From Candidatus Levyibacteriota bacterium (lineage in GTDB: Bacteria > Patescibacteriota > Microgenomatia > Levybacterales > UBA12049): a stretch of 64,000 nucleotides of DNA. The position numbers and the translations under genes are program-made. The DNA is taken from contig JACPLG010000003.1 of NCBI GenBank assembly GCA_016186625.1, forward strand, positions 98,576 to 162,575. The letters are read 5' to 3'. Positions 675-37,103 of this stretch are shown here, piece by piece. How positions within the stretch are numbered: position 1 is the stretch's first letter; each line of letters starts with the position of its first letter. The notes beneath the pieces are model-generated. The model had not been told where the DNA came from. It saw only the letters and a program-made list of their open reading frames with translations, and searched no databases.

Positions 675-792
675 AGTATTGACCCAGGATGGCTTGACAA
701 ACCTGATTTTATGGAGGATAATCCACGCAAACACTTTGGGAAAGCCCACCTTCGCATGAAGCTATGGTGGGTAAAGGAGGTGAAGAAAGAAA

Positions 793-1335: not shown

Positions 1336-1446
1336 AGCGGTTGCGGGACGTACCATTCGGTACATCCTTAAAAGTTGCGGATTTGGGGAGGAAAAATCTA
1401 GGACGTCAGGCGTTCTTGTGATATAATTGCCGCGCTCAGGAGATTT

Positions 1447-3624: not shown

Positions 3625-3693
3625 ACCCATCGTGGTTTGGGGCTGCGCCGTAACCGTTAATAGCGCGGATTTTGCGGTTGCAGGGAGGTGATA

Positions 3694-4335: not shown

Positions 4336-4337
4336 AG

Positions 4338-21663: not shown

Positions 21664-22586
21664 TCATAAACTGCTTTTGAGAAATTTGCAATAGACTCGA
21701 TTGCTTTCTTTACGTCATTTGTATCTGTCAAGACCACAATTATATAATCTCCTTTTGAAGAATAAACTATTCCTGCGTCGTGCTTAGCATTAAACAGCTC
21801 TCCAGTTTTGTGAGCCACCGGAGTATTTTTTTGTAAATATTTCGGTATTCTGTCATTTAGGGTTTGATTTTTAAGAATATCAACCATTTTTTCTGAATAA
21901 TCCTTATCAATGATTTCTCCTTTATAAAGTTTTTCAAAAAATAAGGAAGTATCCTCAGCAGTTGTCTGAGGCGGCTGCCGGAAATTTGAGTTTTTAAAAT
22001 TATAGTCTTTTAAAAATTGGATGACATTTGTTGTCCCTGAGCGGGAGGCAACAAGAAGAGCTGCATAATTATCAGAGATCGTAATCATCCGCTCAATTGC
22101 ATCACCAGTACTCATACTAATAAACCTCGGTTCTTCTTCCAGAGATGGGCTGGGGCTAAATCCTTCAAGGGTGGGTGTTGGAGTTGTTGTTGAAAGTGTA
22201 TCATCTAAATAACTAAGAGGAAGGGTAAGAACATCATCCTCACTAAGTAATCCATCCTTAATTTTCTGAAACGCAACTGCCATTATCCAAAGTTTATAAA
22301 GGCTGGCAGAATTAAATTTTTTGTTTTCATTATAAAAATAATTCTCTCCTGTTTTTAAATTTTTTATAACAATTGCATATTCCCCACTGTTGTTTAATAA
22401 ATGCTTCTCTGCAATATCCGCAAGTTTACTTTCACGGGTATCTGCTGGTAAAACAATAGCTCGGGATAAATTTTCTCTTTTTAAATTCTCCTCATTTTGC
22501 AAATTAGCTAAATAATAAATAACTGAAGGAATAAGAAATAGGGCCGATATAAAAAATAAGAGGATAATTAGCAATTTTATTTTCAC
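21645..22586 (-). CDS. class A beta-lactamase-fold serine hydrolase, membrane-anchored
   Basis: SxxK (SASLYK), SDN (ISDNYAA), KTG (HKTGE) motifs; N-terminal TM. Confidence 0.7.
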   Translation of the reverse strand: MKIKLLIILLFFISALFLIPSVIYYLANLQNEENLKRENLSRAIVLPADTRESKLADIAEKHLLNNSGEYAIVIKNLKTGENYFYNENKKFNSASLYKLWIMAVAFQKIKDGLLSEDDVLTLPLSYLDDTLSTTTPTPTLEGFSPSPSLEEEPRFISMSTGDAIERMITISDNYAALLVASRSGTTNVIQFLKDYNFKNSNFRQPPQTTAEDTSLFFEKLYKGEIIDKDYSEKMVDILKNQTLNDRIPKYLQKNTPVAHKTGELFNAKHDAGIVYSSKGDYIIVVLTDTNDVKKAIESIANFSKAVYDYFTTL

Positions 22587-22635
22587 TCACCAAATTTAAA
22601 CACAATTCGAGGTGTCAAACAAGTCCGAAAAATGA

Positions 22636-23022
22636 TTAAAATCCAAACTCCCTGGCAAACAAATCTGCCTCTTTTTCCTGTTTCCTAATTTCTTTTTTAG
22701 ACTGTCTCTCAAGTACGGAATTTCTATGCCCAAGAATTACATGTCCAATCTCATGTGCAATTGAATGGTAAATTTGTTTTTTGTTTTGTAATAAAAGATC
22801 ATCGCTTAAAAAAATAAGATGCTGACTTTTTAAGTCATCTCCTGTAAAAGTAAAAGCCCACGCATCTTCCAAAGAAGACATAAACCAGCATGTTTTTGTA
22901 ATTTTCGAAGTGATGTTTTTTGGCATCTCTGACAAAACCTCACAAACTGCTAGTTTCATCCTTTTAGTACCAACCAATTTGCCATTAAATTCATGATAAA
23001 TTTCACTTACATCTTTTTTCAT
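22636..23022 (-). CDS. small HExxH zinc-metallopeptidase-like protein (ImmA/IrrE/SprT-like)
   Basis: AHEIGHVILGH motif; 128 aa. Confidence 0.45.
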   Translation of the reverse strand: MKKDVSEIYHEFNGKLVGTKRMKLAVCEVLSEMPKNITSKITKTCWFMSSLEDAWAFTFTGDDLKSQHLIFLSDDLLLQNKKQIYHSIAHEIGHVILGHRNSVLERQSKKEIRKQEKEADLFAREFGF

Positions 23023-23068
23023 TTTAAAAATTATATCAGAAGACTGAAGGGGTTAAATGTGGCATCTG

Positions 23069-23554
23069 CTATTCATAACGAATTTCTATTCTGTCGCCGT
23101 CGCGCATATGGTAATTTTCAAAATCCCTATTTGCCTTTCCATTAACCAACATTTTAACAGCGGCCTCTGAGGAATTTTTAAATTCAAAAATTTGAGATGA
23201 ATTAAATTGCTTTTCCCAAATTTCAAAAAATCTTCCTAATCGAGTTTCATCTTTGGTTACTAATCCATTCATCTCCATATGAAGGATTCCTTCTGGAGCG
23301 TCATCGTGAGTATGGATCTCTTCGTGCTTTGTGGGCAAAATTCCAATATTCGCAGGGGTTTCTTGTTTTTCTCCGTTTACATAAATTTCAAGTCTTGGAT
23401 GCCAATGAAGCCCGTTTTCCGCCACAATTTGCTCTTCCGGAACAGAAGAGTTGTTGTTGCTTGATAATAGAAGAGCCCCGCCTATTAATATGGCAAGTGT
23501 AAAAATTCCTATCCCTCCTATAATTTTTATATCTTTGCTAAGTTGTATGCTCAT
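23069..23554 (-). CDS. membrane-anchored His-rich extracytoplasmic protein
   Basis: TM then HWHPRLEIYVNG...HEEIHTHDDAPEGILHMEMNG; start trimmed to avoid 90-bp overlap with upstream gene (uncertain). Confidence 0.4.
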   Translation of the reverse strand: MSIQLSKDIKIIGGIGIFTLAILIGGALLLSSNNNSSVPEEQIVAENGLHWHPRLEIYVNGEKQETPANIGILPTKHEEIHTHDDAPEGILHMEMNGLVTKDETRLGRFFEIWEKQFNSSQIFEFKNSSEAAVKMLVNGKANRDFENYHMRDGDRIEIRYE

Positions 23555-24131
23555 GACCTGTTCCACCGCAAGCATCGGAAATGTCCCAAAGATTGGCAAT
23601 TTGCTCAGAATCCCATCCGAAGTCAGCAATTAATTTCTTTGCTAATCCCTCATATGCGTCCCAATGCCAGCATTTGCAGCAGCACGGTCCTCCTTCATCA
23701 GACATTTTCATGGCTTCATTGTAGATAGTTTGCTGCTCGGAAGTTAATTCAATCTCCTCAAAAAATTTAAAAAGCTGTTTTGCCTGAGATGCTGAAATAT
23801 CATACGGATCGGTGGGGATAATCGAAATATCCTTATATTTTTTTAAACCTTCAATTTGCTCCTGATAAGCATGGCGATCCATTTTATCACAGCATGAACC
23901 CTGGATTCTTTGATCATCAGGATAATTAAAAACTATCTCCTTTTGAAGACCGCAATTATTACTTGTTTGCGAAACTAGATAATTAAACTTTTGGTCCGAA
24001 CCCGAAGCTGCATTTGCATCACCAAGCTCAATTTCTCCCTGAACATTATTAGTCGGTTTTTCCCAGTTAAAAGCCAAATATCCCAATACTCCAATTACCC
24101 CAATAAGCAGTAAAACTAAAAGATAACGCAT
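23538..24131 (-). CDS. membrane-anchored Cys-rich protein (SCC, PCCCKC, CGG motifs)
   Basis: Start ATG 24131 overlaps the stop of the upstream gene by 1 nt (TAATG); ORF-track upstream extension is unlikely. Confidence 0.5.
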   Translation of the reverse strand: MRYLLVLLLIGVIGVLGYLAFNWEKPTNNVQGEIELGDANAASGSDQKFNYLVSQTSNNCGLQKEIVFNYPDDQRIQGSCCDKMDRHAYQEQIEGLKKYKDISIIPTDPYDISASQAKQLFKFFEEIELTSEQQTIYNEAMKMSDEGGPCCCKCWHWDAYEGLAKKLIADFGWDSEQIANLWDISDACGGTGHEHTT

Positions 24132-24667
24132 TATTTTGTTACTCCCATCTCCTTCATGCTTTTGGAAACAAAATACAATGAAAAAGCAATAAGAACAAGA
24201 GCCAAAAGTGAGAACTCCAAACCCCGCAGGGGAAAAACGGCCAGTCCTCCTGAAACGCCTAAAAGTCCGATAAGTGCAGTATTGCATGCGGAACAGGCGG
24301 CACCAAAAGCCCCACCAAATATTCCGAAAAATCCGAAAACATTTGTGCGCCCAATAAATACCTTTGTTGTTCTTGTTTTAAGAATAACAAGAGAAATATT
24401 GAGTCCTGCCAGAAAAGAGACAAGAACAACCGCCAAAACATTTACCGGTCCTGCAATTTCCCAAACCATTTCAACTTGATTTATAAAAACCTTCCATAAA
24501 ATAGAAGGATCATAAGTTATTGCCAAAATTGAGGTGAAAACAGAAAAGCTGTTAATTACAATGTAGAAAGTAAAAAGAAAGATTGTTAAGATGCCAGTCA
24601 GGGTAACATAGGCTGGTTTATGTAAAAGAAGATTAATAGCGGCGATGAGTATTACAACTTTACTCAT
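24131..24667 (-). CDS. polytopic membrane protein with intramembrane CxxC (ACSACN)
   Basis: 178 aa, about 5 TM; lies between the DsbA-like and Cys-rich genes; possible redox partner (inference). Confidence 0.5.
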   Translation of the reverse strand: MSKVVILIAAINLLLHKPAYVTLTGILTIFLFTFYIVINSFSVFTSILAITYDPSILWKVFINQVEMVWEIAGPVNVLAVVLVSFLAGLNISLVILKTRTTKVFIGRTNVFGFFGIFGGAFGAACSACNTALIGLLGVSGGLAVFPLRGLEFSLLALVLIAFSLYFVSKSMKEMGVTK

Positions 24668-24673
24668 TTAATT

Positions 24674-25477
24674 TTACTGGATTGTATCAAGGGCTGCCTT
24701 AAATGACTCGAAAGGCTGGGCGCCCACAAGGATAGTTCCTTGGAATTTACCTTGTGAATTCGATTTTCCTATAAAAAACGTTGGAGTTCCGTTAGCACCA
24801 TACGCTGATGCGTCTGCCAAATCTTTATCAACTTCCTCCTTATACTTTTCAGAATCAAGACATGATTGAAGCGCACTGCCATTTAACCCTAAATCATTTG
24901 CAATAACCGATAATTGATCGAGTGCAAGTCCTGTTCCGTTTGATGTTGTCCGTTTAAAAATCTCATCGTGGTATTTGAAATAAGCAGTGTCTCCACCCTG
25001 TTCTCTAGCACACTCGGCAGCTTGGGATTCTTTATGTGCATTTTGGTGGAAATCTAAAGGTAAATCGCGAATTACAAGCTTAACTTTTCCAGTATCTATA
25101 TATTCACTTTTAATCTGAGGCAGTGTCTCATCAAAAAATCTTTTACAAAAAGGACACTCATAATCAACAAATTCAATCATCGTAATAGGAGCGTTTTTAT
25201 CTCCCATAACAGGATCATCATCAACTGAAACTTCAATCGGGCCTGTGGGCTGTTGTGGGGCTTGGGGATCTAAACCTTGAGCTATAGAAGAATTATTCCC
25301 AGATACGTTTTTTTCAAGATAAGTTACTTTTGTATATAAAACTCCAATTAAAAATGATGCAACAATGAGAAGTATTCCTAGAACATAGATAATATTTAAT
25401 TTGGAAATTTTAGAAACAATTGATAAGGCATTACTTTTTAATAAATTATTCCCAGATTTTTCACTTTCTGTTGGCAT
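24674..25477 (-). CDS. DsbA-family thiol:disulfide oxidoreductase, membrane-anchored
   Basis: FVDYECPFCKRF active site (CPFC); DsbA-like thioredoxin domain; N-terminal TM. Confidence 0.8.
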   Translation of the reverse strand: MPTESEKSGNNLLKSNALSIVSKISKLNIIYVLGILLIVASFLIGVLYTKVTYLEKNVSGNNSSIAQGLDPQAPQQPTGPIEVSVDDDPVMGDKNAPITMIEFVDYECPFCKRFFDETLPQIKSEYIDTGKVKLVIRDLPLDFHQNAHKESQAAECAREQGGDTAYFKYHDEIFKRTTSNGTGLALDQLSVIANDLGLNGSALQSCLDSEKYKEEVDKDLADASAYGANGTPTFFIGKSNSQGKFQGTILVGAQPFESFKAALDTIQ

Positions 25478-25528
25478 ACTACAAAGTGTAGTAGAATTTC
25501 CCTAAAATTGTCAAGTGGTAATAAATTA

Positions 25529-26536
25529 TTATTCCCGGGGTGTATAAAGGAATGAGGCATTTAATTTATCAAAAGATTTATTAGAGGAGTTTTCAAAGTA
25601 AGCTTTGCTGTAACTTTGAGAAGAACTGCAGGAATTTACACATTGATTAATATTACTGCATAGCATCAAAATATCTTGGCTTTCATCATGAATTTCATCT
25701 GCATACACAGGAGTTATTACCATAATAATAACTGCTACTGAAGATAGTAAGGTGAGAAAGAGATGTTTTAAACGAAACTGTCTGCGGTTATAATTTTTAT
25801 TTACCAATGAATAAATTCGAGGCTCAAGAGTCTCATAGTCGGCGATTGCCGCAACCGGAATTGTTTCAACTATAGGATATGACAGAAGTTTTTTGAGTGC
25901 TGAGATAAGCGGTTTCCTATCACCAATTCTAGCAACTGCAAATTTATCAGCTTTTATTTCTCGTTCAATTCTATATTTTCTAATAATATCCGAAAGCAGG
26001 GGGAAAAAGGGGAAAAATGAATGAAGAGCTGAGGCAACAAGCATTATAAAAGTATCATGATTTTTTAAATGATACTCTTCATGAAGAATTACCGCCTTTA
26101 TTTCTTTTTTTGAGAGGCGAGAAAGGAGCGCTTCTGATATATAAATTTTTTGTGCTCTTATGCCAAAACAAAAAGCAAACAGCTTATTTGATTCAATTAT
26201 TACTATTTTTTCCTTCAATCCATAATTTTTTATAAACTCTTTTTTTGAATAATCAATTTTTACTTTGTCAATAAGTTTATTTTTTAAAATTTGTATCCTG
26301 ATTATTAAAATTATAAATTTGATAACATAGATTGCTATTATAAGAAAAAATCCTATAAGAGGAATTATACTTAAGTAGTGGGGGATGTGAATTATAAAGC
26401 TACTTATAAATGACTGACAGTAATATATTGCGTGACCTATTAAAGGGAAGAGTTTTTGAATAATAAACAGTAGTGTTATTCCAAGTATTGCAAACAATCC
26501 TAAAAACAAAGCGAGATTTTTATTTATTCTTATCAT
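25529..26536 (-). CDS. BlaR1/MecR1-like M56 peptidase transmembrane domain protein, no penicillin-binding sensor domain; Cys-rich C-terminal tail
   Basis: 4 TM plus ILHEEYHLKNHD (HExxH of M56); 335 aa versus about 585 for full BlaR1. Confidence 0.7.
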   Translation of the reverse strand: MIRINKNLALFLGLFAILGITLLFIIQKLFPLIGHAIYYCQSFISSFIIHIPHYLSIIPLIGFFLIIAIYVIKFIILIIRIQILKNKLIDKVKIDYSKKEFIKNYGLKEKIVIIESNKLFAFCFGIRAQKIYISEALLSRLSKKEIKAVILHEEYHLKNHDTFIMLVASALHSFFPFFPLLSDIIRKYRIEREIKADKFAVARIGDRKPLISALKKLLSYPIVETIPVAAIADYETLEPRIYSLVNKNYNRRQFRLKHLFLTLLSSVAVIIMVITPVYADEIHDESQDILMLCSNINQCVNSCSSSQSYSKAYFENSSNKSFDKLNASFLYTPRE

Positions 26537-26900
26537 GTTCTTCTAGAATCTTTAAAAAATACTTTTTCTTTTTCTGGGGCAACTTATCTACACTTTCCGC
26601 AAACGAGGCAATTGCGCTGTCTCCAAACGAATTAATAAATCGTTTCAAAAATGTCTGAGCAACATTTTTAGTGTATGATTCTCTGCTTACTTTAGGCGAG
26701 TAAACATATCCCTCTTTCTCTATTTTTTTAATAACTAAACCTTTTTCATTCAAGCGATTAAGAAGCGTGGCTATTGTTGTGTATGCGTATTTTTTATCTT
26801 TATTTATTTTGTTTAGAACATCTCTTGTAGAGCATTTTTTAAATTCCCAAACTATATCCATTACTCTCTGCTCTAAGTTGCTTAAGGATTTTAATTTCAT
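26520..26900 (-). CDS. BlaI/MecI/CopY-family transcriptional repressor
   Basis: LSNLEQRVMDIVWEFKKCSTRDVLNKI...YAYTTIATLLNRLNEKGLV winged-helix penicillinase-repressor pattern; overlaps the M56 gene by 17 nt. Confidence 0.8.
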   Translation of the reverse strand: MKLKSLSNLEQRVMDIVWEFKKCSTRDVLNKINKDKKYAYTTIATLLNRLNEKGLVIKKIEKEGYVYSPKVSRESYTKNVAQTFLKRFINSFGDSAIASFAESVDKLPQKKKKYFLKILEEHDKNK

Positions 26901-26940
26901 ACTACATATTGTAGCAGATATTTAATGGTTCTTTTCTATC

Positions 26941-28389
26941 CTATATGCAACAACTTAACTTTGTAATATCTTGGGTAAATGAAAGCGCAACGAGTTTGAT
27001 TGACTCGGAAAGCGTTGGAAACATAGGTAGGGAATTAGCAACATCATCTATAGTATTTTTGTTTTTGATAAGCATCATCGCCTCTGCTATGAGTTCACCC
27101 GCATTAGGAGCTAAAATATGAACTCCCATAATCTGTTTTGTATCGGGATGAATTGCCATTTTAATAAGTCCTTCTGTTCTATTGAGGATTAAAGCTTTTG
27201 GAACATCTTTAAAAGAGACAGTCTTACACATACAAGTACCAAACTTTTCCATTTGCACTTCTTCGGTAAGTCCTACCCCTGCCAGTTGCGGATCCGTAAA
27301 AATAGTCCAGGGAACTGAGTTATAGTCTATACTGTTCTGCGTATCTTTGAGGGCATTTTCTGCTACCAGTGTTCCTTCTCTGCCTGCTGTTGTTTCTTGT
27401 CTTATAGGTAGATTGGTAACATCACCAACTGCAAAGATATGAGCTTGAGAAGTTTGAAAATGTTCATTTACTCTTACCGCTTGCTTGTCGGTAATTTCTA
27501 CTCCGGCTTTGTCAAGACTTAATCCTTTCGTATTTGGCGTTTTACCAGCTGCGAGTAAAATTTCATCGCCTGATACTTCTTCCACTTTACCATTAATACT
27601 ATAAGAAACAATCTTTTTGTCTCCTTCTTTTCTAGCACTCTTTACTTGGACATTTGTTTTAATGGAAATACCCTCTTCTGTAAGTATTTCTGTTAGTCTT
27701 GTAATTAGTTCTTCTTCTCCTCGGAAAATAGATGGTCCCCGGTGAAGAACTGTTACTTTTGTGCCAAACCGGGCATACATTTGAGCAAACTCAAGTCCTA
27801 CCGGTCCTGCTCCAATGACAATAAGTTCTTTTGGCTGTTGCTTAAGCTTTAAAGCCTCGATATGGGTTATATAACCTGTTTCTTTTATTCCTTCAATTGG
27901 AGGAACAGTCGCAGTTGAACCGGCTGCAATGATGAACTTCTTGGCTTGATATCTTTTTCCACCTTGTCCTGCCTGTCCGCCTCTGGAGGAAGATGTCGAA
28001 GGATCAACTTCTATTTCATTTGGGGAAACAAATACAGCCTGTCCTTCCAAATGAGTAACATTCTCTAAGTTACTGAGAACTTTTTCATATTTTTCAGCTC
28101 GTAATTTCGCCACCAGATCAAGTTCATATTGGACAACTCTTGCAAAATCAAAGTTTTTAATCTCAAGTTCTACTCCGGGAATACCATGGTGCTTTGCCTG
28201 ATGCATGATTTCACCTGCCCAGAGAAGTGTTTTAGATGGCACACAACCTACATTGACACACGTTCCACCAAGGGGCAAACCTTTATTTACCATTAAGGTT
28301 TTAGCTTTCAGTTCGCTTGCTTTAATGGCAGCGGCAAATGCTCCAGCTCCTCCGCCAATAATTATTAAATCAAAATTATTAATACTCAT
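26941..28389 (-). CDS. merA: class I pyridine nucleotide-disulfide oxidoreductase, mercuric reductase-like (core MerA without NmerA)
   Basis: GGTCVNVGCVPSK redox-active disulfide; FAD/NAD Rossmann motifs; C-terminal KLSCCI vicinal Cys pair as in MerA (LSCCAG). Confidence 0.6.
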   Translation of the reverse strand: MSINNFDLIIIGGGAGAFAAAIKASELKAKTLMVNKGLPLGGTCVNVGCVPSKTLLWAGEIMHQAKHHGIPGVELEIKNFDFARVVQYELDLVAKLRAEKYEKVLSNLENVTHLEGQAVFVSPNEIEVDPSTSSSRGGQAGQGGKRYQAKKFIIAAGSTATVPPIEGIKETGYITHIEALKLKQQPKELIVIGAGPVGLEFAQMYARFGTKVTVLHRGPSIFRGEEELITRLTEILTEEGISIKTNVQVKSARKEGDKKIVSYSINGKVEEVSGDEILLAAGKTPNTKGLSLDKAGVEITDKQAVRVNEHFQTSQAHIFAVGDVTNLPIRQETTAGREGTLVAENALKDTQNSIDYNSVPWTIFTDPQLAGVGLTEEVQMEKFGTCMCKTVSFKDVPKALILNRTEGLIKMAIHPDTKQIMGVHILAPNAGELIAEAMMLIKNKNTIDDVANSLPMFPTLSESIKLVALSFTQDITKLSCCI

Positions 28390-28440
28390 ACTTTAACCGC
28401 AATTCGGACACATAATCTTTCACCTCCTAAAAATCATAAA

Positions 28441-28746
28441 CTACGACATGAATTCTTTTAATGTTTTGGTAAACTCATTTTTCTTCATAGAATAATAGAC
28501 TGTCTGAGCTTCTTTTCTCCTTGTAACAAGCTCCAACTCCAAGAGTCTCTTGACGCTATGTGAGACAACAGAAATAGAAGTATCCAGAATTTTTGCCATT
28601 TCGCCAACAGAAATTTCAGGATAATGACAAAGAAGATAACAAATCTTTAAGCGAGTAGTATCTCCCACAACTCCTAATTGCTTGGCACAAGCAATAAGCT
28701 CCTTCTTATTTTTTAATTCCCTCTTGATTTGCAGATAGTCAGACAT
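28441..28746 (-). CDS. ArsR/SmtB-family metalloregulator
   Basis: HTH ICYLLCHYPEISVGEMAKILDTSISVVSHSVKRL; start set at MSDYLQ (ORF-track start 28794 possible). Confidence 0.6.
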   Translation of the reverse strand: MSDYLQIKRELKNKKELIACAKQLGVVGDTTRLKICYLLCHYPEISVGEMAKILDTSISVVSHSVKRLLELELVTRRKEAQTVYYSMKKNEFTKTLKEFMS

Positions 28747-28856
28747 GTATTTGAACGTATATTCAAATATACAAGCTGGGAATAGTAATGTCAAGAGGAT
28801 TAATTAATTCTTTCATACAGTAATTAAGTCTTTTTCAGCGCAAGTTTCATAATATT

Positions 28857-30932
28857 TTATAATTTTGTTCGCCGGAGTAGTAGGGCATTTGCAACTACAA
28901 TGATTGACGATGCAGACATTAAAACCGCGGCCCATTCGGGGCGAAGCAGTATTCCAAATGCGGGAAAAAGTACGCCCGCTGCCGTAGGTATTGCAAAAAC
29001 ATTATATCCTGTTGCCCATGCAAGATTCTGAACCATTTTGAAGTTGGTTTTGCGGGAAAGTGAAATTGCCTTAACAACATCTTGCAGATTATTTTTCATA
29101 AGTACTATTTCTGCTGATTCTACGGCAACGTCAGTTCCTGCCCCTATTGCAATTCCCATGTGTGCCTGAGTAAGACTTGGCGCATCATTCACGCCGTCCC
29201 CAACCATTGCCACAATATAGCCTTTATTCTGGAGTTCTTTGACTTTCTCAACTTTGTTACCAGGTAAAACTTCTGCAAAAACCGTATCAAGATTTAAAGC
29301 AAGACCAACTTCATCTGCCACTTCTTTTTTGTCCCCTGTCAGCATTGCTGTTTTTATGCCCATTTCGTGGAGCTTGTCAATCGCGGGACGGGACTCATCT
29401 CTTATTAAGTCGGACAATACGAAAGCGCCTGATAACTTTTTATCAATAGCAATATAAACTATTGTTCCTGCTTTTTTTGTCTTAAGTCTATTAATATCTT
29501 CTTTCTTAATACCTATCTCTTCCATCATGCGGCCGTTTCCCACAATAATTTCTTTATTATCAACCGTGCCCAAAGCGCCTTTGCCCGGATAAGATTTAAA
29601 ATTTTTAGGAGAAGGGGTCATAATTTTATGCTTTTTTGCTTCATTTACTATACCCATTGCTATTGAATGCTGGGAGGAGGATTCAACAGCTGCAGCAAGC
29701 CTTAATAGCTCCTCTTCCTCAACTACTGAATCTGATACGCGAACTGACTCTGCTATACCAAACTCTCCACGGGTAAGTGTCCCTGTTTTATCAAAAACTA
29801 CATAATTTATTTTCCGCGCTATCTCCAACCCTTTCATATCTTTTATTAAAATGCCGTTTTTAGCACCAAGTGTTGAGGTAATTGTTGTAACAGTTGGAAT
29901 AGCAAGGCCCAGCGCATGCGGGCAAGCAACAACCACAACCGCAACAGCAAGGGTTGATGCAAAGACTGCGCCTTGAGGATTAATAATTAGCCAATATATA
30001 AATGTTCCTGTTCCAATGGTTATTGCGGTTATTGTCAAAACGTTTGCGGCGCGGTCTGCAAGCTCCTGAACCTTTGGTTTTGATTCCTGTGCGTGTCTTA
30101 TCAAATCCATAATTTGGGAAATTGCCGTATCACTCCCTGTCTTTGTAACCTGAATCGTAAGCGACCCGTCCTGATTAATGGTTCCGCCTATAACTTTGTC
30201 TCCTTTTAATTTTCCTACGGGGCGGGATTCGCCTGTCACCATTGATTCATTAACAGAGCTTTCTCCATCCAAAACCTGTCCGTCAATTGGAATTTTTTCG
30301 CCCGGCTTGACAAGGAGTTTGTCACCTGATTTTACTTCATCGGTTTTAACATCAATAACCTTACCCTCTTTTAAAAGATGGGCTTGGGGCGGGATAAGTT
30401 TTGCAAGTTCTGAGAGCGCACCAGTTGTTCCACGAACCGCCCTCATCTCAAGCCAATGTCCAAGCAAAAATACTGAAATAAGAGTTGAAATTTCCCAAAA
30501 CAAAGACTCTCCGGGAAAAAGGAATGTAGCGGCAACTGAAAATGTATACCCAACAGTTATTGCCAGGGCAACAAGCGTCATCATTCCCGCATTCTTTGCA
30601 AAGAGTTCTCCCTTTGCGCCCCTAAAAAAAGGAACTCCCCCATAGAAAAATATAAATGTGCCAATGAAAAAAAGTGCAATTTCCCGGCCGGCAAAATCAA
30701 TACTTAATGAAAGCCAATTTTGAATATTTGGGGACAGAATCATTGCAAGAATAACAAAAGGAAGAGTTATGAAAAAACGCTTTTTGAATTCCTGCTCCAT
30801 TGAGGAATGATCTTCATGCTCAGACGCAGCAAGCGGGACAAGCTTCATTCCGCATTTTGGACAATTACCCGGTTTGTCCAGAATTATATCCGGATCCATA
30901 GGACAGGTATAAATTTTGTTATTCATATCCAT
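28857..30932 (-). CDS. heavy-metal translocating P1B-type ATPase (CPH-type, CopB-like) with N-terminal zinc-ribbon/YHS-like motif
   Basis: CPMDPD...CPKCGMKL; TGES; intramembrane CPH; DKTGTLT; GDGVNDAP. Confidence 0.9.
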
Positions 30933-30937
30933 TGTTG

Positions 30938-31237
30938 TTATTTTTTTGCCAGCCTGTTATATAATTCTACAAATGCGTATGACGTTACCCATGTTACTGC
31001 GGAAATTGTTACCAGCCCGTAAACAAGAGTTCCTAACGAAAGCTGAGTTTTTATTTTAATTGCTTCCAGGTTTAGCGAATGAACCCATGAATTTCCAATA
31101 CCAGCTACTAAGTCCGGAGCAACATAAGACAAGAGTGCGCAAGCTATAAAAAATATTGCTATAACTATTGTCGCAGCATTTGCAAAAGCGATAGATTTAA
31201 GCATAATTTTCACCTCCTTTACCCGCCGCTCAAGCAC
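30938..31237 (-). CDS. small membrane protein (3 TM)
   Basis: 99-aa hydrophobic ORF immediately upstream (in operon) of the ATPase. Confidence 0.4.
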
Positions 31238-31304
31238 TCTTTAAGGCGTGTATGGATAATACTGAAAAGCCTTAAAGTAAGCTTAGGCGGGCCTTTTAAA
31301 AAAC

Positions 31305-31733
31305 TTAGTATCCCCAACTCTTCTGCCACTCCGTCATCATGTTAATTTCACTCGTCTGGGCTTTTATGATGTCATCGGCAAGATTTTTTATTTCATCATG
31401 GCTTGCATTTTGTTGAGCCAACTTTGCCATCTCAATTGCTCCCCGATGATGAGGAATCATTTGCTCTATAAATGCTTTGTCAAAATCATCCCCTGTTTTT
31501 CCTTCTAATGCATTAACCATGCCACTCATGGACATTTCGTCTTCTCCCATCATCTGATCATGCATTTGACTCATTCCTTGAGAAAATAAATCCTGGTTAT
31601 TAACCATCTGGCGCATCCCCATCATTCCCATCATTCCCATATTATTAGAATTAACTGCGTTATTTGCAAAAATAACAGTAATAACTATTCCCGCAAGAAA
31701 TCCAATTATTGCGTATAAATATTCTGTTTTCAT
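31305..31733 (-). CDS. DUF305-family protein with Met-rich (MGMMGMMGM) segment
   Basis: PHHRGAIEMAKL DUF305 motif; N-terminal TM; Met-rich copper-binding-like stretch. Confidence 0.65.
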   Translation of the reverse strand: MKTEYLYAIIGFLAGIVITVIFANNAVNSNNMGMMGMMGMRQMVNNQDLFSQGMSQMHDQMMGEDEMSMSGMVNALEGKTGDDFDKAFIEQMIPHHRGAIEMAKLAQQNASHDEIKNLADDIIKAQTSEINMMTEWQKSWGY

Positions 31734-31737
31734 TTTT

Positions 31738-32580
31738 TCACCTCCTTTTGATTTTTTTAAAAATATAATAAATTAGTCCAAAAATTAAAATCAAAAATAA
31801 GATATTTAAGAGAAAATTATTGCCCAGATAATCATTAACTAGTATTCCCGCGTCCTGAATTACTTTTGCAAATCTCTCACTTTTTGCCATCGAAAGCTGA
31901 CCGCGAAGTGTTAGAACAAAAATAAAAATCCCGGCAGTTATAAAAATAGTGAAAGAAATAAAATTACTTACACTTACAAAATATTCCCTTCCAAATATTT
32001 TTAGAACAGTTAATTTGCTTTTTAGAATTTTAAGTTTGTCTATTTTGTCCGATAGGAAAAGAGAGATTAGAAGAAGAGGAACTATCATTCCCAAAACATA
32101 AACACCGCCTATAAGAAGTGATCCAATGAAGGTTGGTGACAAAAATGCCAGTGCTAATATACCGATTAGAACAGGTGCACAGCATGCGCTTGTTATTCCA
32201 GAGAAAATTCCAAGCGTAAATATAGACAAAACATCTACTTTTCCCTCATTCCTTGTAGGAAGATGAATCATAATAGGCGATTTAAGGCCAAGAAGTGAAG
32301 CAACTGCTACCAAAATCATAACAATTCCGCCAAGTATATATATAGTATCGTGATTTCTGTATAGAAATTGAGATATGAGCGCAACTCCTAAAACTGCGGG
32401 CATGAGTACTACAAAAATTCCTGCGCCAAAAACCAGAGTCATAGAGAGAACTTTTTCTTTCTCTTTAAATACGCTTCCTAAATAGGCAGGAAGTAGGAAT
32501 GTTATGCAACAAGGAGCAAAAAGCGCAATCATTCCTGCTACAAATGCCGCAATAAGTGAGATTTGAAAAATTCCATCCAT
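31738..32580 (-). CDS. CcdA/DsbD-fold transmembrane protein with vicinal Cys-Cys pairs in two TM helices
   Basis: FAPCCITFLLPAYLG and SACCAPVLIGIL occupy the positions of the CcdA TM1/TM4 cysteines; 280 aa, multi-TM. Confidence 0.6.
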   Translation of the reverse strand: MDGIFQISLIAAFVAGMIALFAPCCITFLLPAYLGSVFKEKEKVLSMTLVFGAGIFVVLMPAVLGVALISQFLYRNHDTIYILGGIVMILVAVASLLGLKSPIMIHLPTRNEGKVDVLSIFTLGIFSGITSACCAPVLIGILALAFLSPTFIGSLLIGGVYVLGMIVPLLLISLFLSDKIDKLKILKSKLTVLKIFGREYFVSVSNFISFTIFITAGIFIFVLTLRGQLSMAKSERFAKVIQDAGILVNDYLGNNFLLNILFLILIFGLIYYIFKKIKRR

Positions 32581-32582
32581 AT

Positions 32583-33518
32583 TTATGCCGAGCAGCTCCC
32601 TCCTTCTCCATCAAGACTTGGCCAGGGGATTTGTCCTACTCTTTCTCTAACCACGCCATATCCGTCTGAGCTTGAGAAAGTTTTGGATAAAAGCTCTTTA
32701 GGAGAAACTTTTGCAAACTCTCTTCCGTTTTCTTCAAAAAAGTAAGCAATATCTAAATATGTATCTGGAAACCAATATGTATTGAGTGCTAAAGCAGCTT
32801 TATAAATCTCTTCTTGTGATTTTCCTTGAGAAACCATCAACTCAATTAGCCCAAGCATTGCCATTCCGTGATTGCAATCGGGAAATGCTGTTGAGTTCCC
32901 ACAACATGGCCTGTAAATACTGCCTGCTATCTCCGAAACTGCTTTTTGCTGATCTTTAGAAAGTGTAATATAAGAATGTCCGGAATAATGATCCATTGGA
33001 TCTCCTACCCCCAAACTCCATCCGCCAGTTGATGCAAAAATTGAAGGATCACTCTCCACCATCATCTCTCCTTCTTCCAAGATCCGATTTCTATTGGCAA
33101 GTCCCAGTCCCCACAGTATATCTACCCAAAATTGCGAATTTTCCAAATTTACTTCTATTTGATCTTGTCCTTCTTCAAAATATTTATCCAAATCTTTTGG
33201 AAGCTCATCTCCCCCTGTTACTGCCTGAGCTAACTTCACCTTATCAATAACTCCATCCTCAACCATTCTTCTTCCAAGATCTGCCCATTTAATATTCAAT
33301 ACATAACTGTCTTTAATTACTTTGTTTTGTAGGGCAGAGAGTTTTTCCTCATCAATATTTTGTGATACATCAAAATCCGAAGAGTTGGAATTTTTTGAGG
33401 TTGTTTTTTCAAAAAGAACGCCAAGAAGAAACGTTGTAATAGAAAAAAGAATAATTAAAAGAATTTTCAAAAGAATATCCAAGACATTCTTCTTAAATTT
33501 TCTAATTTTTACTTTCAC
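32583..33518 (-). CDS. membrane-anchored hypothetical protein with PCC/C motif
   Basis: 311 aa; N-terminal TM; RPCCGNSTAFPDCNHG motif. Confidence 0.5.
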   Translation of the reverse strand: MKVKIRKFKKNVLDILLKILLIILFSITTFLLGVLFEKTTSKNSNSSDFDVSQNIDEEKLSALQNKVIKDSYVLNIKWADLGRRMVEDGVIDKVKLAQAVTGGDELPKDLDKYFEEGQDQIEVNLENSQFWVDILWGLGLANRNRILEEGEMMVESDPSIFASTGGWSLGVGDPMDHYSGHSYITLSKDQQKAVSEIAGSIYRPCCGNSTAFPDCNHGMAMLGLIELMVSQGKSQEEIYKAALALNTYWFPDTYLDIAYFFEENGREFAKVSPKELLSKTFSSSDGYGVVRERVGQIPWPSLDGEGGSCSA

Positions 33519-34024
33519 TTAACAACATTCCCTTCAAAAGAAAATTCAACGTAGGGATTGTCCGGATCATTTGTTTCAAAACTGACAAACCTTGAAATTT
33601 TACCTACTCCCTGTGGTCCATGATAAGCAGGATCAAACGCAGCAACTACTTCTCCCTCTTCTCCCGGCCGGAGTATTCCTTTCCAATCTGATGGAGCAGA
33701 CATTCCTTTCATTCCAAAACTTGGTCCGTCTTTTCCATTTTGCCTTAGAAAAACTTTTGTACACATACAAGAAGTTGTCATATTTGCTATCTCTAAATCT
33801 TTAGTTCCATTATTTCTAATAGGAAAACTGTGATATAGAATTCCGTCCGAAAAGCCTATATCGCCTACTGTTTTAGCGGCATGATCAATTAAAACCTCTG
33901 CTCCAGATATTGAGGAAAGCATCGCTTTTGTTTCTGTTTTGGATTTTGATGAAATAAAAATAGCTCCAATAATAATTGTGCCTACAACTAGACCTAGCAT
34001 GACAAAAAGTTTTAAATTATTCAC
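33515..34024 (-). CDS. DUF1573-domain protein, membrane-anchored
   Basis: FPIRNNGTKDLEIANMTTSCMCT matches the DUF1573 signature (N.G...L.I..v..sCgCT). Confidence 0.6.
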   Translation of the reverse strand: MNNLKLFVMLGLVVGTIIIGAIFISSKSKTETKAMLSSISGAEVLIDHAAKTVGDIGFSDGILYHSFPIRNNGTKDLEIANMTTSCMCTKVFLRQNGKDGPSFGMKGMSAPSDWKGILRPGEEGEVVAAFDPAYHGPQGVGKISRFVSFETNDPDNPYVEFSFEGNVVK

Positions 34025-34032
34025 TATTAATT

Positions 34033-34560
34033 TTATAAATATTTATTCGGACTCTTCTTAAATGTTTCAAAACATCCTGATGCACAGAAATAATATGAAA
34101 GGCCGTTTAAATCCAAGGCATATGATGCTGTTTTTGGACTAAGTCTCATTTTGCACACGGGATCATTAGTTAGAGGAACTAGATCTGTCATTTTTTTGGT
34201 AAGATTTTCCATTAAAGGATCGTTTTTACTTTTATGCTGCTCTACTAGAATCTCCCTCATTAAATCACTTGCTTTTATAAAATTTTTATGGGCAATTTTG
34301 TAGTAAATTTGCTTACCGTTTCTTTTTGTTGTTACAACATTTGCCTCTCGCAGAACTTGAAGGTGCTGGCTTAAATTTCCCTGTGGCAGGCTTAACATTT
34401 CCTGAATTTCACCAACAGTTAATTCCTGACTTCGAAGAAGCTGAAGAATTTCCAAGCGTTTTGGGTTGGACAGTGCTTTAAGCAGTTTTGCATGTAGACT
34501 AAACACTTCTGAATACATATTCGATATTTCGAATATATCATGGCGACAGACCACTGTCAA
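34033..34560 (-). CDS. ArsR-family regulator fused to C-terminal TRASH/YHS metal-binding domain
   Basis: ArsR HTH LSNPKRLEILQLLRSQELTVGEIQEML...HLQVLREANVV; C-terminal DPVCKMRL...YYFCASGCFETF (C-x19-C-x3-C). Confidence 0.75.
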   Translation of the reverse strand: MTVVCRHDIFEISNMYSEVFSLHAKLLKALSNPKRLEILQLLRSQELTVGEIQEMLSLPQGNLSQHLQVLREANVVTTKRNGKQIYYKIAHKNFIKASDLMREILVEQHKSKNDPLMENLTKKMTDLVPLTNDPVCKMRLSPKTASYALDLNGLSYYFCASGCFETFKKSPNKYL

Positions 34561-34591
34561 TATCTAAAATGGTATAATTTATTACGACCCT

Positions 34592-35125
34592 GTGAGATTT
34601 AATCCAAGAATATTAATTATAGTAATTATTGCAATTTCACTTATATTTATCGGTATATTTTATTTATTCAATTCCAAACAGAGTAACCAATCACAGACCT
34701 CATCCACTACTCAAAATTCGTCTGAGATAACATCAGAAAAATTTGATTATAAGGCTTCCTTTGCAATTTATACTAATGGCACTTTCAGAATCTTCGAAGA
34801 TCCAAAATATCACAATCTCTCAGAAGATGTTTATATTGGTTCCAGTAATCCGAACATTGTAAATATTAAAAAGGCAAATATAACATGGGATAATTTTTTC
34901 AAAACTCTTCCTATGAGTTTAAGAAAGGATTGTTTAACTACCGGAACAATCCAAACTTTTTGTACAAATGGAGAGTTTGTTTTGCAATTTTATATAAATG
35001 GTACTCGAAACCAATCTGCGCTTGATCAAGTGATAAATCTTGGAGATAAACTGCTTGTAACTTTTGAGCGAGAAAATTCACCAGTAATCCAGAGTCAGAT
35101 TTCTTCAATTCCGGACTCTAACTGA
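34592..35125 (+). CDS. membrane-anchored hypothetical protein
   Basis: 177 aa; N-terminal TM; followed by hairpin ACCTGCCTTTAGAGGCAGGT. Confidence 0.5.
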   Translation: MRFNPRILIIVIIAISLIFIGIFYLFNSKQSNQSQTSSTTQNSSEITSEKFDYKASFAIYTNGTFRIFEDPKYHNLSEDVYIGSSNPNIVNIKKANITWDNFFKTLPMSLRKDCLTTGTIQTFCTNGEFVLQFYINGTRNQSALDQVINLGDKLLVTFERENSPVIQSQISSIPDSN

Positions 35126-35360
35126 AAATTCTTTATGATACCAAATATGCTAATATTAACCTGCCTTTAGAGGCAGGTGATAACAAATGAGTAGAAATAT
35201 TTTAATTGCAATTGGAGTTGTTTTCTTGCGAGTCAACAAAACAACAAATCCGCTGATTCACTAGTGCAAAAAGAAGAAAAAACATCGTGGATAAGTCCGG
35301 AAACGAGATTACTAGATGGAATGGCACAGATTTTGAAGAAGTAATTGCTAATATTAAATA

Positions 35361-37103
35361 ATGAGTTTGCTTTTGATATTCGCTTTAGTCTCTGGGCTAA
35401 TTACAATTCTAGCGCCGTGTATATGGCCGCTTCTTCCTATTATTCTCTCTGCAACTGCAACAGGCGGACATAGAAAACCTCTTGGAATAACACTTGGAAT
35501 AATTATCAGTTTTGGGATCGTAACCTTAACAATTTCATATATTGTCAGAATTATTCCGTTTGATCCAAATATTCTTCGTATATTTTCAGTAATTGTGATT
35601 ACAACTTTGGGATTAACGCTCCTTATTCCAAAACTCTCAGGAATTTTAGAAGGCTATGTCAGTAGGCTGTCAGGAAAATTTGCAATTCAGCGTCAGGGAA
35701 ACGGATTTTGGGCGGGGCTGATTACTGGTTTTGCCCTGGGAATTGTTTGGACTCCATGTGCCGGACCAATTCTTGCAACAATTGCAACTCTTGCTGCAAC
35801 ACAGCAGGTAAATAGCTCAATAATATTAGTTACTATTGTATATGTAATTGGCGTTGGAATCCCTCTTTTTCTTTTTGCAATCCTTGGAAGAAGAATTTTC
35901 TCAGGTTCCAAACTTTTATCTCCCTATCTAGGAAAAATTCAACAGGTGTTTGGGGCGATTATGATAATAACTGCAATTTTAATATTTACAAATTATGATA
36001 AGACACTTCAGGCAAAACTTCTTGATCTTTTTCCTTCATACGGAAATTTTATTATTAATCTAGAAAGTAATGAAAAAGTTAAAAAACAGCTTGATAATTT
36101 AAGGGGTGGAACAAACAAGGGAGACGAGATGATTGGAAAACCTTTTGAAATGCCAAAAAGCAACAACCTTCCCAATTTGGGAACAGCACCTGAGTTTGTG
36201 GGAATAAGTAATTGGCTTAACAGTAAACCTTTGATGATGGAGGGGCTTAAAGGAAAAGTAGTTTTGATAGATTTTTGGACTTACACTTGTATTAATTGTA
36301 TTAGAACTCTTCCCCACGTAACTTCCTGGTACAACAAATATAATGATCAGGGATTTGTAGTGGTTGGTGTTCATACTCCTGAATTTGAATTTGAAAAAGA
36401 TACAGGAAACGTTGAGAATGCCATTGCCCAATACAAAATTCTTTATCCAGTTGCGCAAGACAATGACTATGCCACTTGGAATGCCTACTCTAATCAATAT
36501 TGGCCGGCAAAGTATTTGATCGACAAAGATGGTAATATCCGATATGCACATTTTGGAGAAGGAAAATATGAAGAAACAGAGAAAGCAATTCAAGAACTGC
36601 TCAGGCAAGCTGGCCAAAAAGTAGATTCCTCTTTAGAACAAATGCCGGATCAGACACCAAGGATGCGGCTTTCACCCGAAACTTATCTTGGATCAGCACG
36701 AATGCAATACTATTATCCTTCAGGAACCTTATCGAACGGAAAATCCAATTTTAAACTCGAAGAAAACCCATCGCCTAACTCTTTTAGTCTGGGCGGAGAA
36801 TGGGAAATAAGCGATGAGTATTCCGGTCCTTCTAAAAATTCAACTTTAACAATTAATTTCTACGCAGACAAGGTTTTTCTTGTTTTAAAACCGCAAAGTT
36901 CAAATTCTGCGACAAGAATTTATATAGATGGTAAACTCGTGGATTCTAATAATCAAGGAACAGACGTAAAAAACGGAATTATGAATATTGATTCTGATAG
37001 GCTTTATAATTTAGTAGACCTACAAAACGGACCGGAAACACACACCTTAAAAATCGAATTCTTAACTCCTGGGGTAAAAGCTTTTGCTTTTACTTTTGGT
37101 TAA
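35361..37103 (+). CDS. DipZ-like protein: CcdA/DsbD transmembrane domain fused to thioredoxin-like and C-terminal beta-sandwich domain
   Basis: ILAPCIWPLLP and WTPCAGPILA (CcdA TM cysteines); thioredoxin-like WTYTCINCIRTLPH. Confidence 0.85.
   Translation: MSLLLIFALVSGLITILAPCIWPLLPIILSATATGGHRKPLGITLGIIISFGIVTLTISYIVRIIPFDPNILRIFSVIVITTLGLTLLIPKLSGILEGYVSRLSGKFAIQRQGNGFWAGLITGFALGIVWTPCAGPILATIATLAATQQVNSSIILVTIVYVIGVGIPLFLFAILGRRIFSGSKLLSPYLGKIQQVFGAIMIITAILIFTNYDKTLQAKLLDLFPSYGNFIINLESNEKVKKQLDNLRGGTNKGDEMIGKPFEMPKSNNLPNLGTAPEFVGISNWLNSKPLMMEGLKGKVVLIDFWTYTCINCIRTLPHVTSWYNKYNDQGFVVVGVHTPEFEFEKDTGNVENAIAQYKILYPVAQDNDYATWNAYSNQYWPAKYLIDKDGNIRYAHFGEGKYEETEKAIQELLRQAGQKVDSSLEQMPDQTPRMRLSPETYLGSARMQYYYPSGTLSNGKSNFKLEENPSPNSFSLGGEWEISDEYSGPSKNSTLTINFYADKVFLVLKPQSSNSATRIYIDGKLVDSNNQGTDVKNGIMNIDSDRLYNLVDLQNGPETHTLKIEFLTPGVKAFAFTFG

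Follow-up and report, generated by a model that had tools for sequence, protein, structure and literature searches.

A soft-metal and thiol gene cluster of a Candidatus Levyibacteriota bacterium with novel accessory cysteine-motif families

Transporter-free arsR-merA operons have been described as a simple archaeal-type arrangement (PMC3466566), and a MerA clade from the Candidate Phyla Radiation (CPR), sister to a clade of Thermococci and Archaeoglobi, has already been described (Christakis et al. 2021, PMC8261052). Simple ArsR-regulated mer operons occur in Archaea and in some Actinobacteria, examples being merR-merH-merA of Sulfolobus solfataricus and the ArsR-type repressor of Streptomyces lividans. 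The other systems closest to the locus studied here are the CcdA/DsbD transporters with the reductive copper-tolerance pathways ScsB-ScsC and Pseudomonas DsbDEG, the MerP-MerT/MerC/MerF relay, the DsbB/VKOR proteins that work with DsbA, the BlaI-BlaR1-BlaZ regulon, and CopM (DUF305) with the P1B-3/CopB-type copper ATPases. The locus is a minus-strand gene array on a 64,000-nucleotide stretch of a Candidatus Levyibacteriota bacterium (assembly GCA_016186625.1, contig JACPLG010000003.1, positions 98,576 to 162,575), hereafter called the window. The cluster is of a known kind, and its accessory families are novel. The array likely combines, as a mosaic, three adjacent stress units for each of which a separate control region is predicted: a copper operon (unit I, 34560-28857), a minimal archaeal-type mer cassette (unit II, 28794-26941) and a BlaI/BlaR1-like disulfide/envelope regulon (unit III, 26914-21645). 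The functional statements below, among them the inducers, the direction of electron or metal flow and the transcript boundaries, are predictions from sequence.

Array layout and predicted control regions

The sequence-only reading had listed 16 co-directional minus-strand genes between 22636 and 34560, and all 16, with their domains and motifs, were confirmed by ORF (open reading frame) and domain scans. The co-directional run was longer than first noted and reaches 21645. The protein with eight cysteines (8-Cys protein) was corrected to 197 aa, beginning at 24131. Homologue alignments placed the probable starts of the ArsR genes at 28746 (merA-adjacent ArsR) and 34518 (ArsR-YHS), and the -35 hexamers of promoter-like sites account for the apparent TTG starts at 28794 and 34560. 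The genes are as follows.

34592-37103, plus strand: divergent pair of a 177-aa anchored protein and a DipZ-like CcdA-redoxin-Thioredoxin_10 fusion (ORF and domain scan)
34033-34518, minus strand: ArsR/SmtB repressor fused to YHS/TRASH (HTH_5 E 6e-15; YHS E 1e-10; NF033788)
33515-34024, minus strand: DUF1573 exported Ig-like protein with CxC (Pfam match and conserved residues)
32583-33518, minus strand: 311-aa membrane-anchored protein with PCC ectodomain, PCC311 (homologue family, no Pfam)
31738-32580, minus strand: 280-aa CcdA-fold membrane protein with doubled cysteines C24C25 and C133C134 (family profile against 5VKV)
31305-31733, minus strand: CopM-like DUF305 protein, Met-rich, HH motif (DUF305 E 1.5e-19)
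30938-31237, minus strand: DUF5676 two-helix membrane protein (Pfam match; invariant Cys and His)
28857-30932, minus strand: P1B copper ATPase, CPH motif, N-terminal HMBD (TIGR01511)
28441-28746, minus strand: predicted ArsR-type mer repressor, three invariant Cys (NF033788, 59.8 bits, cut-off 55)
26941-28389, minus strand: MerA catalytic core without NmerA (TIGR02053)
26520-26900, minus strand: BlaI-family repressor, one Cys (Penicillinase_R E 1.9e-25)
25529-26536, minus strand: BlaR1-like M56 membrane metalloprotease, 335 aa (Peptidase_M56 E 1e-15, residues 49-207; HEEYH)
24674-25477, minus strand: membrane-anchored DsbA (Thioredoxin_4 E 3e-33; DSBA E 2.5e-21)
24131-24667, minus strand: 178-aa membrane protein with CxxC inside a transmembrane helix (no Pfam family)
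23538-24131, minus strand: 197-aa anchored ectodomain protein, eight invariant Cys (SCC, PCCCxC; no Pfam family)
23069-23629, minus strand: anchored His-rich ectodomain protein (invariant H75, H77, H106, H108, H117; start probably internal)
22636-23022, minus strand: small HExxH protein (weak M78/M48 matches)
21645-22586, minus strand: class-A beta-lactamase-like protein, last of the co-directional run (Beta-lactamase2 E 2e-45)

The thiol theme carries on beyond the array into the DipZ-like CcdA-thioredoxin fusion on the plus strand (35361-37103). Cysteine statistics were taken over the 19 genes of 21645-37103 and compared with the 58 ORFs in the rest of the window. Vicinal CC dipeptides were found in 4/19 genes and in 1/58 of the other ORFs, the Cys content was 1.22% versus 0.66%, and the CC/Cys motifs were invariant in all homologues examined (50 to 120 per family). 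The recurrence of vicinal cysteine pairs and the devotion of the cluster to soft-metal and thiol handling, both proposed earlier, were borne out, and similar gene mixtures recur in other CPR genomes.

The sequence-only reading went on to suggest a single integrated, non-canonical mercury or soft-metal resistance island. In such an island, the CC/CxxC proteins (doubled-Cys CcdA, PCC protein, 8-Cys protein and CxxC membrane protein) would take the place of MerT/MerP, capture Hg(II) on the outside, move it across the membrane on cysteine pairs and deliver it to the C-terminal CC of MerA. The enrichment and invariance of the CC motifs agree with this explanation, as does the genuine MerA described below, and we nevertheless hold it to be improbable. 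The predicted control regions bear on this question.

34560-34532, minus strand: predicted promoter P_cu, TTGACA-17-TATATT (promoter-like match 11/12)
34517-34536, minus strand: perfect palindrome ATATTCGA-N4-TCGAATAT, overlapping P_cu (feature span 34517-34560)
28794-28766, minus strand: predicted promoter P_mer, TTGACA-17-TATATT (promoter-like match 11/12)
28748-28769, minus strand: perfect 8-6-8 palindrome TATTTGAA-N6-TTCAAATA, overlapping the P_mer -10 (feature span 28748-28794)
26902-26914, no strand assigned: BlaI-type palindrome CTACA-N3-TGTAG, abutting the blaI start codon
25514-25485, minus strand: promoter-like TTGACA-18-TACACT before dsbA (feature span 25479-25514)
25479-25491, minus strand: second BlaI-type palindrome CTACA-N3-TGTAG, abutting the dsbA start codon

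P_cu and P_mer are the two best promoter-like matches of the region and lie precisely upstream of the two ArsR genes, and the palindromes of ArsR-YHS and of the mer cassette are each present as a single copy in the window. In 10 related mer loci, the start of arsR carries a perfect copy of the core of the mer palindrome, TTTGAA-N6-TTCAAA. Exactly two copies of CTACA-N3-TGTAG occur in the 64 kb, at the blaI and dsbA starts; both positions are kept in the related loci L059, L060 and L064, and the blaI position also in L008, L010, L047 and L051.

The arsR-merA cassette and its insertion

The reductase encoded at 26941-28389 is, as judged by its scores and key residues, a genuine core-only archaeal-type MerA; the sequence-only reading had called it MerA-like. 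It scored 501.8 bits against the equivalog TIGR02053 (cut-off 454.45), the lipoamide dehydrogenase model gave 369.3 bits, under its cut-off of 408.8, and the five best PDB matches were all MerA, with 5x1y and 4ywo at the top. The active-site CxxxxC is C44/C49 in GGTCVNVGCVPSK (C207/C212 in the numbering of Bacillus RC607), and in the C-terminus ...KLSCCI the pair C480/C481 aligns with the CC of 5x1y and 4ywo (C628/C629). Y101 aligns with the Tyr264 equivalent of 5x1y, and F457 stands at position 605, as in the Metallosphaera MerA 4ywo; Phe605 is the accepted archaeal-type state (PMC8261052), the bacterial one being Tyr605. All sequence criteria for MerA of Boyd and Barkay (PMC3466566) and Christakis et al. 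(PMC8261052) are passed. An NmerA domain is absent, and a look-up of the exact sequence gave no match. Assignment as lipoamide dehydrogenase or another flavoprotein was ruled out by the TIGR02053 score and the PDB matches.

About 43 mer loci with a MerA 63-80% identical to that of the window, from many CPR phyla, were collected in a genome scan. An ArsR homologue lies directly upstream of merA in 28/43 of them, in many with nothing between the two genes, as in the window, and the three Cys of the mer ArsR are invariant in 22 sequences. This ArsR has the conserved thiolate ligands and the palindromic operator of an ArsR/SmtB-type mer repressor. The repressor would bind TATTTGAA-N6-TTCAAATA and be released by Hg(II), which the core-only MerA would then reduce at the expense of NAD(P)H, giving volatile Hg(0), with no dedicated importer. 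No protein of 21645-37103 matches MerT, MerP, MerC or MerF, of which MerC and MerF were readily detected in L027 and L031, and no MerR-family gene was found in the region, in agreement with the earlier statement that the classical merR/merT/merP genes are lacking; for a mercury island the missing matches are also a point against. The window thus shares with the archaeal-type operons and the CPR clade the core-only MerA with Phe605, the ArsR directly upstream and the absence of merT, merP, merC and merF. It differs from the archaeal-type operons in having no stand-alone TRASH protein beside merA, the only TRASH/YHS domain being fused to the copper-unit regulator, and in the insertion of the cassette between the copper ATPase gene and the BlaI regulon. 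The mercury part is ordinary: the CPR MerA clade, already known, gains one more member, and the arrangement is the simple one under ArsR control.

In other loci of the set, further genes stand between arsR and merA: merC in 8 loci, merF in L031, thioredoxin-like and CcdA-like genes in L029 and L025, and, in L016, L024, L028 and L034, a homologue of the 8-Cys protein together with a fusion of about 490 aa that joins a CxxC membrane domain to a PCC domain. L035 resembles the last four without the fusion gene. Small CxxC membrane proteins (clusters c8 and c36) were also observed between arsR and merA, along with thioredoxin-like/CcdA-like genes, in L029 (7683-11401), L025 (2700-6770), L027 (8690-11410) and L045, and some of these operons carry a dual-specificity-phosphatase-like gene (cluster c9). 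To our knowledge, mer operons composed of thioredoxin-like, CcdA-like and CxxC membrane genes have not been reported before. The records labelled "uncultured Gammaproteobacteria bacterium ... binchicken" (L008, L009, L012, L014, L019, L021, L024-L026, L046, L047) have a MerA 74-80% identical to the Levybacteria protein and CPR-type neighbours, and their taxonomic labels look unreliable.

The closest syntenic relative of the array is L064, with the order CopB, BlaI, BlaR1, DsbA, CxxC membrane protein, 8-Cys protein, His-rich protein and beta-lactamase, which is the order of the window minus arsR-merA. The identities are 67% for CopB, 88% for DsbA, 87% for the CxxC membrane protein and 80% for the 8-Cys protein; the beta-lactamase-like gene is at the same position, and the small HExxH protein is not conserved. 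In a junction alignment, the blaI operator of L064 directly adjoins the copB 3' flank (1590-1720), and in the window the two are about 1.9 kb apart, with junctions at 28795-28860 and 26915-26945. arsR-merA is accordingly best described, from this alignment, as a discrete inserted cassette of about 1.9 kb. Its predicted promoter and operator of its own and its absence from L064 argue against a mercury island. The similar short sequences AATCCTCT and AATATCT were observed at the two edges of the insert and could be a recombination or target-site footprint.

The same comparisons bear on a chance juxtaposition, in which unrelated genes have become neighbours in a compact genome and the Cys theme reflects exported CPR proteins being Cys-rich. 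CPR genomes are gene-dense with long co-directional runs, the flanks of the cluster consist of housekeeping genes without mobility genes, and GC is only mildly raised, all of which would fit. Against it, L060 and L064 likewise have a copper ATPase gene directly before the BlaI-DsbA unit, and inserted merA, merR and glutaredoxin genes are all that parts the two in L047; CC pairs are concentrated in the region; and two recurrences described below, of DsbA near the DUF1573-PCC-CcdA genes and of these genes with merA, point the same way. We therefore consider chance very unlikely. In CPR, merA, copper ATPase and BlaI-DsbA genes repeatedly lie close together (L047, L051, L060, L064, L008/L010). This suggests that clustering is selected for, even with separate regulation.

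The copper unit and the DUF1573-PCC-CcdA triad

Unit I contains a copper pump, exported proteins and its own predicted regulator. The P1B ATPase scored 578.4 bits against TIGR01511 (cut-off 397) and contains FDKTGT and ACPHAL; it shares the CPH motif and a score above the copper-ATPase cut-off with the P1B-3/CopB-type ATPases and differs from them in its N-terminus, which is an HMBD zinc-ribbon-like domain and not a His-rich tail or HMA. The DUF305 protein (71 bits, cut-off 27; PHH motif, Met runs, N-terminal helix) belongs to the family of CopM, a copper-binding resistance protein (PMC4335983). Like CopM it is Met-rich with an HH motif, and it has one DUF305 domain where CopM has two. In the DUF5676 family, a recurrent companion of the copper ATPase, the Cys and His are invariant.

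The other three proteins, the DUF1573 protein, PCC311 and the 280-aa protein, form a triad. The 280-aa protein had no Pfam match at E <= 0.01, and DsbD_TM (PF02683) was thus not detected in it; PF02683 was found in many of its homologues, and the family profile matched CcdA (PDB 5VKV) with E 4e-8. The first Cys of each CC aligns with a CcdA active-site Cys, giving one catalytic Cys per repeat, and the second is extra; both pairs are invariant in 120 homologues, as is His77. From these alignments the protein is a divergent CcdA relative, not a typical member, of a doubled-Cys family (CcdA-CC) with at least 2068 homologues. PCC311 has at least 5545 homologues and no Pfam family, with the motif RPCCxNxTxFPDCNHGMA (including H217 and M219) and a C-terminal Cys invariant; its structure model (pLDDT 86.4) matched no solved fold (best E 1.9). 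In DUF1573, C86, C88 and M105 are invariant and H135 is present in 56/57 homologues. The 280-aa protein is identical to HYW63_00955, and PCC311 to HYW63_00960.

When metagenomes were scanned with the CcdA-CC family profile, 80 loci were obtained, of which the 31 well-flanked ones (>=2.5 kb upstream, >=5 kb downstream) were counted. Next to the CcdA-CC gene, DUF1573 was found in 31/31 and the PCC protein in 29/31, and the triad follows a CsoR, present in 27/31; CopA was found in 26/31, an HMA chaperone in 16/31, DUF5676 and cupredoxin in 15/31 each, and DsbA within 10 kb of the triad in 13/31. True MerA was found near the CcdA-CC gene in 0/31. Four independent contexts of CcdA-CC homologues gave the same picture, with the order CsoR, DUF1573, PCC protein, CcdA-CC and then copper ATPase, with DUF5676 present, cupredoxin and HMA genes in some, and merA in none. 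Compared with a Bacillus CsoR reference sequence, the CsoRs of the cassette carry the Cu(I) fingerprint Cys ... His-x3-Cys. A persulfide-sensing CstR was ruled out for this regulator by the C-H-C fingerprint. In genome GCA_016182185, the triad (L001) and merA (L028) are on separate contigs. Conversely, a CcdA-CC relative is present in only 3/43 mer loci, and triad and merA recur together in L018 and L034 and partly in L013.

By its neighbourhoods, the triad belongs to copper, not to mercury. Co-occurrence of CcdA-CC with merA was not found in the 31 loci, and the claim that the CC proteins are conserved merA neighbours fell for CcdA-CC and PCC311, which stand beside CsoR and CopA instead; for these two proteins the counts, with the L064 synteny, rule out a place in one integrated mercury island. 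No description of the cassette was found in the literature on DUF5676, on DUF1573 with copper or on CcdA with CsoR. In related loci the slot of ArsR-YHS is held by the Cu(I)-type CsoR, and ArsR-YHS is predicted to be the copper-responsive regulator of unit I.

Some related arrangements were also observed. L061 (10337-11542) encodes a 401-aa fusion of rhodanese and PCC domains, a second kind of PCC fusion partner, in the order CsoR, 184-aa gene, DUF1573, 170-aa gene, rhodanese-PCC fusion, DUF5676, DUF2703 and CopA. DsbD_2-cupredoxin fusions recur in CPR metal clusters (L005 14125-15102, L047 12748-13782, L060 7426-8460 and L063 12822-13841), with an HMA chaperone gene directly after the fusion in L005, L060 and L063.

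In the proposed mechanism, ArsR-YHS would sit on the palindrome overlapping the -10 and come off once Cu(I) is bound by its TRASH-type cysteines; copper would then be pumped out by the CPH-type ATPase and bound outside the cell by the CopM-like DUF305 protein. Outside the cytoplasm, the triad would form a relay of cysteines by which exposed thiols are protected or restored during copper stress. Our preference is for a relay of electrons (thiol-disulfide exchange) that runs from the CcdA fold to the PCC protein and DUF1573 and would keep thiols at the surface reduced; direct transfer of Cu(I) is a close second. The reasons are that the CcdA catalytic positions are kept, that selenocysteine variants of DUF1573, with a UGC motif, are known (PMC9312934), which is typical of redox-active sites, and that copper-induced reductive Dsb pathways have precedent (PMC3322552; bioRxiv 10.1101/2020.08.17.255257). 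With ScsB-ScsC and DsbDEG the window shares the CcdA fold, both catalytic Cys positions and a copper-regulated cassette with exported Cys-motif proteins. In contrast to CcdA/DsbD, each catalytic Cys is doubled, the protein lies below Pfam detection for DsbD_TM, and the partners are DUF1573 and a PCC protein of novel fold, not thioredoxin-fold proteins; no gene for a thioredoxin-fold partner was found in the conserved DUF1573-PCC-CcdA cassette, either in the four contexts or in the 31 loci.

Metal ligation would account no less well than electron transfer for the invariant His and Met beside the Cys motifs, for the vicinal CC and for the lack of a thioredoxin-fold partner. The copper unit could accordingly be built round a metal carrier, with the doubled-Cys CcdA as a Cu(I) (or Hg(II)) transporter that has a four-thiolate site and works by alternating access, and with DUF1573 and the PCC protein as extracytoplasmic metallochaperones, a copper analogue of MerP-MerT. 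The doubling of both active-site Cys in every one of the 120 homologues, the conservation of His77, H217/M219, M105 and, nearly throughout, H135, the CsoR control, and the cupredoxin and HMA neighbours all point in this direction. The Pfam LysE/DsbD clan fold also houses the metal transporters CadD, NicO and MntP. Set against this are the CcdA homology, which aligns the catalytic Cys positions, the selenocysteine variants of DUF1573 and the PCC domain itself, which is joined to the CxxC scaffold at the place where DsbA is joined to it (see below) and is fused to rhodanese in L061; moreover, a copper importer induced by high copper would make little physiological sense. We regard a metal carrier as possible but doubtful.

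The BlaI/BlaR1-like unit and the CxxC membrane family

Unit III shares with the BlaI-BlaR1-BlaZ regulon a BlaI-family repressor, an M56 HExxH protease, TACA/TGTA palindromes at the promoters and a class-A beta-lactamase-like gene downstream. It differs in that the 335-aa BlaR1-like protein has no Pfam match beyond the M56/M48 region, and hence no penicillin-binding sensor domain was detected, and in that the operon is dominated by DsbA and Cys-/His-rich exported proteins. A CopY-type copper repressor was rejected for BlaI, in which a single Cys is present and the CxCxxxxCxC tail is absent. The nearest relatives of the 8-Cys protein are found in the order BlaI, BlaR1-like, (YkuD), DsbA, CxxC membrane, 8-Cys, (His-rich) and (beta-lactamase-like) genes, without merA. 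The DsbA, CxxC membrane and 8-Cys genes are adjacent in L059, L060, L064 and L051, and a DPANN contig carries DsbA, 8-Cys and His-rich proteins in this order. The two CTACA-N3-TGTAG operators would control blaI-blaR1 and the dsbA operon; DsbA would work with the CxxC membrane protein, a candidate DsbB/VKOR-like recycling protein, and the 8-Cys and His-rich ectodomain proteins and the beta-lactamase-like enzyme would complete the unit.

The CxxC membrane family (475 representative clusters, no Pfam) is homologous to the mer-linked subgroup c8 (hhalign probability 92.8%). P0484 (417 aa) joins a domain of this family to a DsbA domain by way of one additional transmembrane helix, and fusions to a PCC domain through an extra transmembrane helix were found in L016, L024, L028, L034 and P0394. 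The fusions and adjacencies indicate an exported Cys-active domain, DsbA or PCC, as the working partner of the CxxC membrane domain, a pairing that resembles DsbB/VKOR with DsbA and, to the same degree, MerT with MerP. P0453 (430 aa) has another Cys-rich C-terminal domain (CSYCCGS...NCGCAH), which resembles a variant PCC motif. A MerC homologue was not accepted for the family, as the likeness is confined to 31 columns round the CxxC helix in subgroup c8. The 8-Cys family has at least 458 homologues with all eight Cys invariant, and its structure model (pLDDT 90) matched no solved fold. Comparison of the PCC311 and 8-Cys profiles gave an hhalign probability of 26% (E 7e-4) and consistent sub-threshold hidden Markov model matches in the same region, a weak hint that they may share a PCC...C-x-H core.

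With DsbB/VKOR the window CxxC protein shares a small multi-helix form, a membrane-embedded CxxC and a position adjoining DsbA, and the P0484 fusion recalls VKOR-thioredoxin fusions; it differs in having no sequence similarity, one Cys pair only and no inferable quinone site. With the MerP-MerT/MerC/MerF relay the likeness lies in Cys pairs in transmembrane helices and exported partners, and in other CPR genomes CxxC relatives take the transporter slot between arsR and merA that merC or merF holds elsewhere. These mer-linked relatives (cluster c8 and most fusions) carry a second, cytoplasm-side Cys pair, like MerT and MerF. The window protein belongs to none of the MerT/MerP/MerC/MerF families, has the membrane CxxC only and is grouped with DsbA behind an operator of BlaI type. 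On account of this DsbA neighbour behind the operator and of the missing second, cytoplasmic Cys pair, we favour for it a thiol-disulfide relay with DsbA.

The proposed link between CC proteins and merA thus held in part, for the CxxC membrane, 8-Cys and PCC-domain relatives placed between arsR and merA in some CPR genomes, and not for the CxxC membrane and 8-Cys proteins of the window, which are grouped with DsbA and whose closest relatives have no merA nearby. The earlier interpretation as a whole is partly supported. In favour of a mercury island remain the arsR, 8-Cys, fusion and merA arrangement of L016, L024, L028 and L034 and the second Cys pair of the mer-linked proteins, together with an enrichment of the CxxC membrane superfamily, which in this sample accompanies CPR merA more often than any other accessory gene: it was found near merA in 14/43 loci, compared with 2/80 CPR loci of the background (p = 5.5e-6), and in 12 loci it lies no more than 3 kb from merA and has the same orientation.

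The division into three separately controlled units is itself weakened by several observations. The CxxC enrichment makes some functional tie to mercury plausible, and in five loci the CxxC membrane gene abuts merA within 41 bp. merA recurs beside the BlaI-DsbA unit in L008, L010, L047 and L051. Promoter-like matches overall were at chance level (51 found, 48 expected), and promoter rules of CPR are not established. A region scan gave no convincing intrinsic terminator between the units, and the gaps between them are all <70 nt, so that read-through coupling the units is possible.

The most interesting families are the pair of CxxC membrane and PCC-domain proteins and the doubled-Cys CcdA cassette, and the value of the cluster lies in these accessory genes: the triad cassette has thousands of members and nearly always stands behind a Cu(I)-type CsoR near a copper pump, the CxxC membrane family is fused to DsbA or PCC, and both PCC-type proteins are confidently modelled without resembling a solved fold. 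Ultra-small bacteria are without most respiratory and low-molecular-weight thiol systems. The families are candidates for keeping surface cysteines functional under copper or mercury stress in such cells and may show how they form disulfide bonds at all. Tentatively, the CxxC membrane proteins and the PCC-type ectodomains (311-aa, 8-Cys and fusions) might constitute an unrecognised membrane-to-ectodomain cysteine relay of CPR/DPANN, either a DsbB/VKOR-like recycler of DsbA in mostly quinone-less cells or a MerT/MerP-like system for Hg(II)/Cu(I) uptake recruited into mer operons, with the doubled-Cys CcdA turned from an electron carrier into a soft-metal carrier.

Some features round the array were also observed. 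The gene of the 177-aa anchored protein (34592-35125, plus strand; family unknown) diverges from the ArsR-YHS promoter and may share its control region; in L024, a homologue 45% identical is encoded some 7 kb upstream of the mer operon. Just past the cluster, at 38198-38776 on the minus strand, is a gene for the peptide methionine sulfoxide reductase MsrA, an oxidative-damage repair enzyme. No tRNA gene and no Rfam family at the gathering threshold was found in the whole 64-kb window, including positions 1-5000, where the GC content is 0.45-0.51 versus about 0.35 elsewhere. These 5000 positions, without rRNA or other Rfam match, code for a subtilase of 725 aa that has a PPC domain, and for small DUF11/CARDB-like proteins.

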